Virus record (IMG/VR): IMGVR_UViG_2909298281_000004
Length of the DNA: 15,913 nucleotides
Strand: one strand, 5' to 3'
Origin: a virus
Lineage: Duplodnaviria; Heunggongvirae; Uroviricota; Caudoviricetes
Translations under genes and position numbers: made by a program
The notes under the pieces: model-generated
Seen by the model: only the letters and a program-made list of their open reading frames with translations
Databases searched by the model: none
What the model was told of the DNA's origin: nothing
In this document: piece by piece, positions 3,720 through 15,626 of the stretch
How the letters are laid out: each line of letters starts with the position of its first letter
How positions within the stretch are numbered: the first letter of the stretch is position 1

Positions 3720-3946
3720 TGGCTGATGCAATGGATCTCGTACAGCAGCGCGTTGAAGAAGAACGCCAACGCCATATCCGTGCTGCCCGTGCCAAAACGC
3801 CGGGCGTGTCCCGCGTGCTTTGCGTTGAGTGTGAAGCGCCAATTCCGCCAGCACGCCGCCGTGCCATTCCGGGTGTGCAGCTTTGCATTACCTGTCAGGA
3901 AATCGCAGAGCTGAAAGGCAAACATTACAACGGAGGTGCTGTATGA
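3719..3946 (+). CDS. TraR/DksA-family C4 zinc-finger protein (75 aa)
   Basis: Contains CVEC-x17-CITC, a four-cysteine zinc finger in a small protein, typical of phage TraR-like proteins. AGGAG lies 8 nt upstream. Confidence 0.7.
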   Translation: MADAMDLVQQRVEEERQRHIRAARAKTPGVSRVLCVECEAPIPPARRRAIPGVQLCITCQEIAELKGKHYNGGAV

Positions 3947-4153
3947 GCACCATCCTGAAATGGGCAGGAAATAAAACCGCCATAATGTCCGAACTGAAAA
4001 AGCATCTTCCTGCTGGCCCGCGACTGGTTGAACCTTTCGCGGGTTCCTGTGCAGTGATGATGGAGACGGATTATCCCAGCTATCTTGTTGCGGATATTAA
4101 TCCTGATTTAATCAACCTCTATAAAAAGGTTGCTGCTGATTGTGAGGCGTTTA
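3943..4153 (+). pseudogene. Phage dam-like N6-adenine DNA methyltransferase, N-terminal about 70 codons, truncated by IS1
   Basis: ILKWAGNK...LVEPFAGSCAVMMETDYPSYLVADINPDLINLY aligns with the N-terminus of Dam-family methyltransferases (E. coli Dam: FLKWAGGK...LVEPFVGAGSVFLNTDF..ILADINSDLISLY). The reading frame runs into the IS1 left end and stops at 4156-4158. Confidence 0.75.
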
Positions 4154-4208
4154 GGTGATGCTGCCAACTTACTGATTTAGTGTATGATGGTGTTTTTGAG
4201 GTGCTCCA

Positions 4209-4484
4209 GTGGCTTCTGTTTCTATCAGCTGTCCCTCCTGTTCAGCTACTGACGGGGTGGTGCGTAACGGCAAAAGCACCGCCGGACATCAGCGCTATCT
4301 CTGCTCTCACTGCCGTAAAACATGGCAACTGCAGTTCACTTACACCGCTTCTCAACCCGGTACGCACCAGAAAATCATTGATATGGCCATGAATGGCGTT
4401 GGATGCCGGGCAACTGCCCGCATTATGGGCGTTGGCCTCAACACGATTTTACGTCACTTAAAAAACTCAGGCCGCAGTCGGTAA
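4209..4484 (+). CDS. insA: IS1 InsA
   Basis: 91-aa [46 protein letters not shown]... matches IS1 InsA as remembered. Confidence 0.9.
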
Positions 4485-4906
4485 CCTCGCGCATACAGCC
4501 GGGCAGTGACGTCATCGTCTGCGCAGAAATGGACGAACAGTGGGGATACGTCGGGGCTAAATCGCGCCAGCGCTGGCTGTTTTACGCGTATGACAGGCTC
4601 CGGAAGACGGTTGTTGCGCACGTATTCGGTGAACGCACTATGGCGACGCTGGTGCGTCTTATGAGCCTGCTGTCACCCTTTGACGTGGTGATATGGATGA
4701 CGGATGGCTGGCCGCTGTATGAATCCCGCCTGAAGGGAAAGCTGCACGTAATCAGCAAGCGATATACGCAGCGAATTGAGCGGCATAACCTGAATCTGAG
4801 GCAGCACCTGGCACGGCTGGGACGGAAGTCGCTGTCGTTCTCAAAATCGGTGGAGCTGCATGACAAAGTCATCGGGCATTATCTGAACATAAAACACTAT
4901 CAATAA
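4403..4906 (+). CDS. insB: IS1 InsB reading frame (expressed as InsAB' transposase by -1 frameshift)
   Basis: ORF with ...[18 protein letters not shown]...[12 protein letters not shown]..., characteristic of IS1 InsB. The A6C slippery run lies at 4460-4466 near the end of insA. Confidence 0.85.
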
Positions 4907-4921
4907 GTTGGAGTCATTACC

Positions 4922-5175
4922 AGCATGGCGCAGTCCACTTTTTTAGGAAAAGGGATGCTGAATGTAATTCTCATTGTTTGCGTCGATAATGTCGGCGTAA
5001 CCGCACCACGACCATATTGCAGGATTTTCCCGTTGGGTAATTTCATCCATCCATCACCACTGGCAAAAGAGGCCATGTCCGGTATCTGATTTTCCCCTGT
5101 CCCCACATCCCGTTTTGCCGCTTCTCCCAAACCAACGTTTAAGAAAATGCAGAGGTAACAGCTAACTGGCATCAT
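4922..5175 (-). pseudogene. Fragment of a tail-fibre variable segment (alternative C-terminal cassette), truncated by IS1
   Basis: The minus-strand ORF starts at 5175 and runs into the IS1 right end. It contains DGWMKLPNGKILQYG, which resembles the motif I recall at the start of variable C-terminal domains of Mu/P1/e14-type tail fibres. It is opposite in orientation and adjacent to the invertase, as S'v is to gin in Mu. Confidence 0.4.
5122..5147. other. Candidate Gin/Hin/Pin-type recombination crossover site (single copy)
   Basis: TTCTCCCAAACC-AA-CGTTTAAGAAAA is a 26-bp imperfect dyad resembling hixL (TTCTTGAAAACC AA GGTTTTTGATAA) and gix sites as recalled. It lies just inside the 5' end of the tail-fibre fragment, about 55 bp from pin. 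No partner site is present in the window. Confidence 0.35.
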
Positions 5176-5202
5176 CTCCGGTTTTTATTCAGGGGGATGA
5201 TC

Positions 5203-5769
5203 ATGCTTATTGGCTATGTACGCGTGTCAACAAATGACCAGAACACCGATTTGCAACGTAATGCACTGAACTGCGCGGGATGTGAGCGGATTTTTGAGGA
5301 CAAAATCAGTGGCACTAAGTCCGACAGACCGGGGCTGAAAAAACTACTCAGGACACTATCGGCAGGAGACACGCTGGTTGTCTGGAAGCTGGACAGGTTG
5401 GGGCGCAGTATGCGGCATCTTGTTACGCTGATAGAAGAGTTGCGCCAGCGTGGTGTGAATTTCAGAAGCCTGACTGACAGTATTGATACCAGTACCCCAA
5501 TGGGCCGTTTCTTTTTTCATGTCATGGGTGCCCTGGCTGAAATGGAACGCGAACTGATAGTTGAACGTACCAGGGCAGGGCTGGCTGCAGCTCGTGCCAA
5601 AGGCAGAGTAGGTGGACGCCGTCCTAAGTTGACCACCGAACAGTGGGCACAGATTGGGCGTTTACTCGAGGCCGGAGAATCAATACAGCGTATTGCACTG
5701 ATTTTTGATGTAGGCGTTTCTACCATTTATAGAAAATTTCCGGCAAATAAGATCAATGAATCCCCCTGA
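5203..5769 (+). CDS. pin: Serine DNA invertase, Gin/Pin/Hin/Cin family
   Basis: MLIGYVRVSTNDQNTDLQRNAL...LVVWKLDRLGRSMRHL...FRSLTDSIDTSTPMGRFFFHVMGALAEMERELI..., near-identical in pattern to Mu Gin with the catalytic Ser in YVRVSTNDQ. Start chosen at ATG 5203 (GGGGG 6 nt upstream) rather than the ORF-track ATG at 5197. Confidence 0.9.
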   Translation: MLIGYVRVSTNDQNTDLQRNALNCAGCERIFEDKISGTKSDRPGLKKLLRTLSAGDTLVVWKLDRLGRSMRHLVTLIEELRQRGVNFRSLTDSIDTSTPMGRFFFHVMGALAEMERELIVERTRAGLAAARAKGRVGGRRPKLTTEQWAQIGRLLEAGESIQRIALIFDVGVSTIYRKFPANKINESP

Positions 5770-5817
5770 ATCAGCATTATGTTGATTATCCCTGCAAGCA
5801 GACAAATACCGTTATTT

Positions 5818-5835
5818 TGTGTGAATAACGACACA
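5818..5835 (+). promoter_or_regulatory. Candidate Ogr-dependent late promoter element (TGT-N12-ACA) upstream of the tail operon
   Basis: TGT at 5818-5820 and ACA at 5833-5835 are separated by 12 nt, centred about 85 bp upstream of the FI ATG. This is the dyad that P2-type late promoters carry near -55. It sits within a larger palindrome CGTTATTttgtgtgAATAACG (5810-5830). Confidence 0.45.
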
Positions 5836-5911
5836 ACTGCGCTTAGCTGTTTGTCAGGCACAATCACTTCAACATAGGGCGAAGCCTAATCCAATCAGGA
5901 GGTTCGCCACT

Positions 5912-7084
5912 ATGGCTCAGGATTACCACCACGGGGTGCGCGTTGTTGAAGTCAACGAAGGCACCCGATCTATTACCACGGTGAGCACCGCCATCGTGGG
6001 TATGGTCTGCACGGGCGATGATGCCGATGCAAAAATGTTTCCTCTTAATAAACCCGTGCTGATCACTGATGTGCTGACTGCCAGCGGTAAAGCGGGTGAG
6101 TCAGGTACTCTGGCCCGTTCGCTGGATGCCATCGCTGACCAGGCAAAACCCGTGACCATTGTTGTGCGTGTGCCGCAGGGTGAAACGGAAGACGAAACCA
6201 CGACCAATATCATCGGCGCAGTGACTGCTGAAGGTAAAAAAACAGGTATGAAAGCCCTGTTATCTGCCCAGTCACAGCTCGGCGTTAAACCGCGCATTCT
6301 CGGCGTGCCAGGCCACGACACCAAGGCGGTAGCTACTGAGTTGCTGAGCGTGGCGCAAAGCCTGCGTGGATTTGCTTACCTGTCAGCGTATGGCTGCAAG
6401 ACAGTGCAGGAGGCGATCACTTACCGCGAAAACTTCAGCCAGCGCGAAGGGATGCTGATCTGGCCTGACTTTACTGGCTGGGACACGGTGCTGAATGCCG
6501 AAGCAACGGCATATGCCACCGCCCGTGCGCTTGGTCTGCGCGCCAAAATTGACGAGCAGACCGGATGGCACAAAAGCCTGTCCAACGTGGGCGTGAACGG
6601 TGTCACCGGAATTTCTGCAGATGTGTTCTGGGATCTGCAGGACCCGGCAACCGATGCAGGTCTGCTGAACCAGAACGACGTCACCACGCTTGTGCGTAAA
6701 GACGGTTTCCGCTTCTGGGGTTCCCGCTGCCTGAGTGATGACCCGCTCTTTGCCTTCGAAAACTACACCCGCACGGCGCAGGTGCTGATGGACACGATGG
6801 CAGAAGCACACATGTGGGCGGTGGATAAACCGCTTAACCCGTCGCTGGCCCGCGACATTATCGAAGGTATCCGCGCCAAAATGCGCAGCCTGGTCAGTCA
6901 GGGCTATCTCATTGGTGGTGATTGCTGGCTGGATGAGTCGGTGAACGACAAAGACACGCTGAAAGCCGGAAAACTCACCATCGACTACGACTACACGCCA
7001 GTGCCGCCACTTGAAAACCTGATGCTGCGTCAGCGCATCACCGATCAGTACCTGGTGAATTTCGCCAGCCAGGTCAGCGCGTAA
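5912..7084 (+). CDS. FI: Contractile tail sheath protein (P2 FI-like, 390 aa)
   Basis: [19 protein letters not shown]...[15 protein letters not shown]...[25 protein letters not shown]...[24 protein letters not shown] aligns along its length with P2 gpFI as remembered. CAGGAGG Shine-Dalgarno upstream. Confidence 0.92.
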
Positions 7085-15248: not shown

Positions 15249-15626
15249 GTGAAACATAAACAACGTTGGGCGGGGGCAATCTGCTGTTTTGTCCTCTTCA
15301 TTGTGGTGTGCCTTTTTCTGGCGACGCACATGAAAGGCGCTTTTCGGGCTGCCGGGCATCCTGAAATCGGCTTGCTATTTTTCATTCTTCCTGGAGCAGT
15401 CGCCAGCTTCTTTTCACAGCGTAGAGAAGTCCTGAAACCTCTGTTTGGCGCAATGCTGGCGGCACCCTGTTCGATGCTCATTATGCGGCTGTTTTTTTCA
15501 CCGACGCGCTCATTCTGGCAAGAGCTGGCATGGTTACTAAGCGCGGTGTTCTGGTGTGCGCTGGGGGCACTGTGTTTCTTATTTATCAGTAGTTTGTTTA
15601 AACCACAGCACAGAAAAAATCAGTAA
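15249..15626 (+). CDS. ybjM: Inner membrane protein YbjM (125 aa)
   Basis: GTG start with AGGAGG 5 nt upstream; hydrophobic 125-aa protein at the position of ybjM between ybjL and grxA. Confidence 0.8.
   Translation: MKHKQRWAGAICCFVLFIVVCLFLATHMKGAFRAAGHPEIGLLFFILPGAVASFFSQRREVLKPLFGAMLAAPCSMLIMRLFFSPTRSFWQELAWLLSAVFWCALGALCFLFISSLFKPQHRKNQ

Follow-up and report, generated by a model that had tools for sequence, protein, structure and literature searches.

Half of an inversion switch beside an IS1 element in a P2-like prophage remnant of Escherichia coli D181

The locus and its invertase

The window, i.e. the whole analysed stretch of 15,913 nucleotides, carries a P2/186-like prophage remnant that sits in the rcdA/ybjL interval of the Escherichia coli D181 chromosome (CP024252). 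A published strain table lists CP024252 as D181, a diarrhoea isolate of serotype O182:H21, ST4493 and phylogroup B1. According to the gene calls, the surviving left arm of the prophage encodes integrase, CI repressor, CII, Fil and a truncated dam gene (dam'), and the surviving right arm encodes sheath, tube, tape measure, U, D and ogr. Both arms match the order found in intact relatives and follow the P2/186 gene order from int-CI-early-dam-A-Q to D-ogr. Since the middle 22 kb is gone, the D181 prophage is defective. Many complete E. coli genomes harbour intact members of this prophage family at the same rcdA/ybjL site. The following features lie at the locus under study:

3943..4153, + strand: truncated dam methylase gene, the first 70 codons from the ATG at 3943; left edge of the deletion
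4154..4921, + strand: IS1, 768 bp, with insA/insB and the terminal repeats GGTGATGCTGCCAACTTACTGAT ... ATCAATAAGTTGGAGTCATTACC
4922..5133, − strand: stub of the silent alternative C-terminal cassette of fibre gene H, 70 of the ~123 codons beyond the crossover point
5122..5147, no strand assigned: invertase-proximal 26-bp crossover site TTCTCCCAAACCAACGTTTAAGAAAA, an imperfect palindrome
5203..5769, + strand: complete serine DNA-invertase gene of 188 amino acids (open reading frame 5197/5203-5769, conserved ATG at 5203, no stops)
5226..5287, no strand assigned: putative Fis-dependent recombinational enhancer in the 5′ part of the invertase gene
from 5912: phage tail-sheath gene

The invertase starts with MLIGYVRVSTNDQ and carries its catalytic serine, Ser9, in a Y-x-R-V-S-T-x-x-Q motif. 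It matched the Pfam family Resolvase with E = 2.8e-53 (profile positions 2-144 of 145) and, at residues 138-181, HTH_7 with E = 6.3e-16; its length falls within the ~185-195 amino acids of the family. The protein shares 99% of its residues with the invertase of the intact relative, 85% with e14 PinE and 73% with Mu Gin, the last over 184 residues without gaps. Among structures in the Protein Data Bank, those of Gin stood out clearly as the closest, with E = 1.4e-91 for 3UJ3 versus 2.5e-34 for gamma-delta resolvase. The Johnson laboratory describes the Hin residues Gln151, Arg154 and Leu155 and the basic residues 47, 48 and 51, which serve contact with Fis and the enhancer, as restricted in their conservation to Fis-dependent invertases (PMC3798978). 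Their equivalents in the window invertase are Q150, R153 and L154 and the helix-B residues K46, K47 and R50 (Hin numbering minus 1). The enzyme is a member of the Hin/Gin/Cin/Pin invertase family. The original prediction of an intact Pin/Gin-type invertase, made from the sequence alone, is borne out by the two Pfam domains and by the likeness to PinE, Gin and 3UJ3.

One crossover site beside the fibre stub

In intact relatives, gene H is followed by an invertible segment of ~1.8 kb, the invertase gene and the tail-sheath gene. The segment holds two alternative fibre tips together with assembly chaperones and is bounded by inverted 26-bp sites. In OkiPb01711 (L001, L018), for example, the fibre region runs in the order H, tfaE chaperone, opposite-strand chaperone, opposite-strand gp53-like cassette, recombinase and sheath. 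Its inverted sites of 26-27 bp are 1818 bp apart, one located within H and the other just upstream of the recombinase gene, the latter having the same sequence as the window site. Exactly two inverted crossover sites were present in 14/14 intact loci examined, including e14 of K-12, whereas the window has one. The inward-facing half-sites of the intact loci examined are inverted copies of each other. Furthermore, the site is in frame in both fibre reading frames, H reading ...LTYL|GLGE... and the silent cassette ...FLNV|GLGE.... As worked out from the sequences, exchange at the central dinucleotide would thus swap the C-terminal tip of the fibre.

The window site at 5122-5147 consists of the half-sites TTCTCCCAAACC and TTTTCTTAAACG with an AA core between them. 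The right-hand sites of 11 intact loci have exactly this sequence, and in all 11 gene H contains an inverted partner, which lies ~1.8 kb from the site in intact relatives. Compared with the right site of e14, 25 of the 26 bases match.

The site sequence occurs once in the window when up to three mismatches are allowed, and none of 200 shuffles contained a match. We also built a half-site profile from eight distinct real half-sites, with the consensus TTCTCNNAAACC, a 2-bp core and GGTTTNNGAGAA. On this profile the window site scored 30.9 bits, within the range of 30.0-33.9 bits for real sites, and the next-best position in the window reached 8.4 bits. In shuffled windows, the top score was 10.2 bits on average and 18.5 at most. 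No partner crossover site was found within the 15.9-kb window by the search with up to three mismatches, by a loose palindrome pattern or by the half-site profile. The loose pattern matched at 15428-15453, which we considered as a second site and rejected, as its score of 5.1 bits is at chance level. The site at 5122-5147 had been predicted to be the single residual one, with an overlooked inverted partner named in advance as the finding that would speak against this; such a partner is absent from the window.

The DNA to the left of the site belongs to a tail-fibre gene. All 70 residues of the stub are identical to the gp53-like alternative fibre cassette of an intact prophage (70/70), and the stub DNA is near-identical to that of L001 from position 4922 onwards. 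The stub matches the Pfam tail-fibre tip domain Gp53-like_C at profile positions 1-35 of 84. Together, the cassette identity and the domain match bear out the earlier placement of the site within a truncated tail-fibre variable segment. The minus strand is open across 4922-5175, where an ATG at 5175 opens a frame of 91 amino acids. This stretch had been proposed as the fibre fragment; the stub is indeed there, but the ATG at 5175 is incidental, as the cassette reads through the crossover site (FLNVGLGE). Judging from the reading frame, the cassette would be expressed after inversion only when fused to the constant part of the fibre gene.

The same fragment had been put forward for alignment to the Mu S' and e14 tail-fibre cassettes. 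The stub showed no detectable similarity to Mu S' or to e14 StfE (E = 1.8 in each comparison), so the specific likeness fell away while the identification as a fibre tip, of the gp53-like receptor-binding family, held. The lack of likeness to StfE and Mu S' is unsurprising, since the cassettes of this system are highly interchangeable.

Inversion by this family requires two inverted sites and the enhancer on the same DNA, and as only one site remains, the enzyme has no local substrate. This had been predicted, and the comparison of one site in the window with two in intact relatives agrees with it. What is left at the locus is half an inversion switch, which can no longer invert DNA locally.

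The IS1 junction and the missing 22 kb

The element at 4154-4921 shows the characteristics of IS1, i.e. a length of 768 bp, terminal inverted repeats of ~23 bp and an insA/insB frameshift site, with an A6C run at ~4460. Its gene calls match Zn_ribbon_InsA, HTH_Tnp_IS1 and DDE_Tnp_IS1, and matching IS1 copies carry the RefSeq label IS1A family. On its left, dam' matches the Pfam D12 adenine methylase family, MethyltransfD12, at profile positions 1-69 of 253. The end of IS1 contributes one further codon and a stop, so that the open reading frame runs to 4158. The resulting 71-amino-acid Dam'/IS1 chimeric product was found by exact look-up on one contig only, CP024252.1.

No target duplication of 8-9 bp flanks the IS1 at 4154-4921, the flanks being aggcgttta on one side and agcatggcg on the other. 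The differing flanks and the missing duplication point to an IS1-associated deletion and not to a simple insertion. The window is homologous to an intact relative up to position 4153 and again from position 4922, the breaks being exact, and 21,962 bp are absent in between. The deletion spans from dam codon 71 to a point ~210 bp inside the invertible tail-fibre segment. It removed most of dam, a replication gene, cargo genes, the whole set of head, lysis and baseplate genes, H including the left crossover site, and ~1.6 kb of the ~1.85-kb invertible segment (about 88%). Thus the homology break at 4153/4922 confirms the earlier proposal that the IS1 event took away the rest of the segment together with the partner site. 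Two routes could have led to this deletion: intramolecular transposition, giving an adjacent deletion, or recombination of one IS1 copy with another.

The region of the stub and the invertase is up to 100% identical to intact relatives. Since the junction occurs on one contig only and the identity to intact copies is this high, we infer that the deletion is recent. It follows that the intact state of the invertase gene tells nothing about selection; the gene is most likely intact because the deletion is recent and not because it has been selected.

At two loci in other genomes, H51 and H52, IS1 also seemed to be adjacent. They were rejected, as unrelated IS1 copies had been joined to them by the merging of hits, and both loci are intact prophages.

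In strain 50EVAW (NZ_CP138407.1, L002 5217-11330) a prophage of the same family occupies the same rcdA/ybjL site and is broken differently. There, dam is interrupted by IS903B, after which come a gtrA/gtrB-type O-antigen modification module and IS1. Similarity to the window starts at the crossover core, CATTTCATATCC|AACGTTTATGAAAA, and ~400 bp of unrelated sequence extend leftwards from it.

The 21,962 bp missing from the window include the equivalent of one region of L018 (13058-17220, NZ_AP042673.1). In L018 an AAA ATPase gene, an HNH endonuclease gene and an AIPR-family gene lie here, with the replication genes on one side and the portal gene on the other, and they resemble anti-phage cargo.

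Invertase activity and explanations for the locus

The exact 188-amino-acid protein is found on at least 1000 contigs, including intact prophages in which it lies beside complete invertible segments. Two loci encoding it, L011 and L012, have flanks that are 99.8-99.9% identical, and the entire 1746-bp segment between them is flipped at 99.0% identity. A polymorphic base of the inner half-site travelled along with the segment, leaving the right site for the left one. A half-site polymorphism that travels with the segment is the mark of core-dinucleotide exchange, which makes it probable that the window allele is active. In another pair with the identical protein, L013 and L014, 1800 bp are flipped at 99.9% identity. 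The flips beside the exact protein could also stem from an ancestral allele or from another invertase; on this sequence comparison we regard the window allele as probably active.

Codon 161 (5683-5685), with which the second helix of the DNA-binding domain begins, encodes Ile, whereas Arg occupies the position in 114 of 120 cluster representatives. We considered Ile161 as a disabling change acquired after the loss of the substrate. This was rejected, as the same protein is present on the at least 1000 contigs, in intact prophages and beside the flip isomers.

Two of the loci examined show irregular switches. At the invertase-proximal site of L013 (7905-7945; GCA_003583685.1, QXTI01000001.1) there is a tandem 15-bp partial duplication, TTCTCCCAAACCAAC TTCTCCCAAACCAACGTTTAAGAAAA. 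At the left segment end of L013 (5998-6120) the left site coincides with the end of the fibre reading frame, a separate reading frame of 129 amino acids comes next, and ~107 bp are unlike the flip isomer L014. The whole arrangement in L013 may be an aberrant recombination product. In L015 (5514-7945; GCA_009728565.1, CP023165.1) the two sites are 1373 bp apart, compared with 1746-1945 bp elsewhere, and no fibre gene was called at 5514-7081, which suggests a degraded switch that has kept both sites.

A Fis enhancer is likely to be present inside the 5′ end of the invertase gene. Two 15-mers of the form G-N13-C, at 5226-5240 and 5273-5287, are separated by a stretch containing ATTTG and TAATG. 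In the hin enhancer, ATTTA and TAATG lie between the two Fis sites, of which the proximal one is ~100 bp away from hixL (PMC3798978). In the window, the first 15-mer and the crossover site are ~98 bp apart, measured between their centres. Both 15-mers have their flanking G/C pair kept in Mu gin and e14 pinE, and synonymous-site conservation across the codons of the putative enhancer is only weakly raised.

A simple consensus scan of the plus strand upstream of the invertase gene found no sigma-70-like promoter. IS1 is oriented such that read-through would head towards the invertase gene. Between the crossover site and the ribosome-binding site of the invertase gene, at 5164-5190 on the plus strand, a short hairpin is followed by TTTTTATT and resembles a terminator. 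A TGGCAT.AT ... TTTTA motif here is kept in e14 and Mu. The hairpin could limit read-through into the invertase gene, or it could be part of a promoter region.

Among the closest known systems are the E. coli P2-like prophages, such as that of EPEC E2348/69, which share with the window family the order of H, segment, invertase and sheath as well as the site sequences. The exact window invertase protein was found in them. In EPEC, phase variation of the tail-fibre segment of the P2-like prophage has been seen experimentally. In contrast to these prophages, the window is without H, the left site and ~88% of the segment, so that the switch cannot operate. In e14, the right site differs from that of the window at 1 of 26 bases, PinE is 85% identical to the window protein, the spacing from the site to the gene start is the same, and a silent fibre cassette lies beside the invertase. 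However, e14 is a lambdoid remnant in which both sites persist and flipping continues, and the fibre cassette of the window is unrelated in sequence to StfE. Mu has the same layout of S-G segment-gin, and its Gin aligns with the window invertase gap-free over 184 residues at 73% identity. The Mu half-sites, TTCCTGTAAACC / TTATCCAAAACC, differ from those of the window, whose cassette is without similarity to S' and which has a single site.

Like the window invertase, PinQ of Qin and PinR of Rac are serine invertases of defective prophages with no adjoining invertible segment. PinQ has been demonstrated to act in trans on e14. Unlike the window orphan, PinQ is 38% identical to PinE, widespread and old; the window orphan goes back to a deletion that is known from one genome. 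A different remnant is present in BL21(DE3) (NC_012892.2, 891565-891885), where a 321-bp match at 95.6% identity (query 22-342) takes in the crossover site and the 5′ portion of the invertase gene. The match stops inside the invertase gene; the neighbouring annotations read recombinase-family protein and phage tail protein. The E. coli B remnant thus seems to have lost the opposite side of the switch, whereas the window keeps the whole gene and loses the fibre side.

Taken together, we consider it highly probable that a recent IS1-associated deletion of ~22 kb left half a switch behind, consisting of one site, a probable enhancer and an intact invertase gene. The invertase, if expressed, would act only in trans, on compatible sites elsewhere in the genome. 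None of the observations speaks against this anatomy. Action in trans had been suggested from the sequence alone and is plausible in view of the precedents PinQ and Fin. That the stranded invertase is in fact expressed and flips a compatible segment in another D181 prophage seems unlikely to us; if true, the invertase would be a second, unlinked controller, just as PinQ controls the e14 P segment and thereby T2 resistance.

A stronger version of this idea, modelled on PinQ, holds that the invertase has been kept for its work in trans and alters a surface or anti-phage phenotype by flipping the segment of another prophage. PinQ, which is without a segment of its own, inverts the 1797-bp P segment of e14, and this inversion blocks T2 adsorption. 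The paper on PinQ gives the inverted repeat of e14 as CCTTCTCCCAAACCAA, and this sequence agrees with the window site in its inner half; PinE and the window enzyme share 85% identity. A close relative of the site and invertase occurs in 1769 of 5426 complete E. coli genomes (~1/3), at up to six places in each. A homologue that is 85% identical to the window invertase bears the NCBI name Fin. Fin belongs to the Fels-2 prophage and reportedly has a part in Salmonella flagellar phase variation, and it is long established that Gin, Cin, Pin and Hin cross-complement. However, the deletion junction is present in one genome only, which leaves no time for selection to show, and compatible segments usually bring their own invertase, so that the window invertase would be redundant. 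We therefore hold retention for work in trans to be improbable.

The recent deletion also has to be weighed against two readings that concern the surviving site and the junction itself. The enzyme gene still has the site and the probable enhancer in cis, and the site might recombine rarely with weak secondary sites of the chromosome and generate large inversions or deletions. Cin of phage P1 is an invertase that uses such secondary ('quasi') sites. Such events are rare even in the studied systems, the window contains no candidate secondary site, its best other score (8.4 bits) being below the shuffle level, and to the left of the site there is still normal cassette with no sign of rearrangement, so that we regard this outcome as very improbable. 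The other reading takes the junction for an assembly artefact, in which two IS1 copies were collapsed and the intervening 22 kb lost from the assembly; a single IS1 without target duplication would also be the outcome of such a collapse, and the junction is indeed seen in one assembly only. Against this, the CP024252 record is a single contig of 4.89 Mb, and a repeat of 768 bp is far shorter than typical long reads. In addition, the complete genomes of 50EVAW and BL21(DE3) contain independent IS-associated truncations of the same prophage family, which indicates that real events of this kind are common, and an artefact is hardly credible here.

The IS1-associated deletion is ordinary, already understood prophage decay in a thoroughly studied system and brings no new mechanism; it matters chiefly for correct annotation. 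The locus also offers a clear and datable case of the origin of an orphan invertase, in that one IS1 deletion splits the enzyme, the site and the probable enhancer from the switch. Since orphans of the PinQ type in cryptic prophages act in trans with effects on phage resistance, such genes can reasonably be flagged as possible trans factors and not as dead remnants.

The prophages L008, L016 and L017 carry an opposite-strand gene for a 610-amino-acid KAP-family NTPase between tail gene S and baseplate gene V (~753-2586). All three of these prophages encode the identical invertase.
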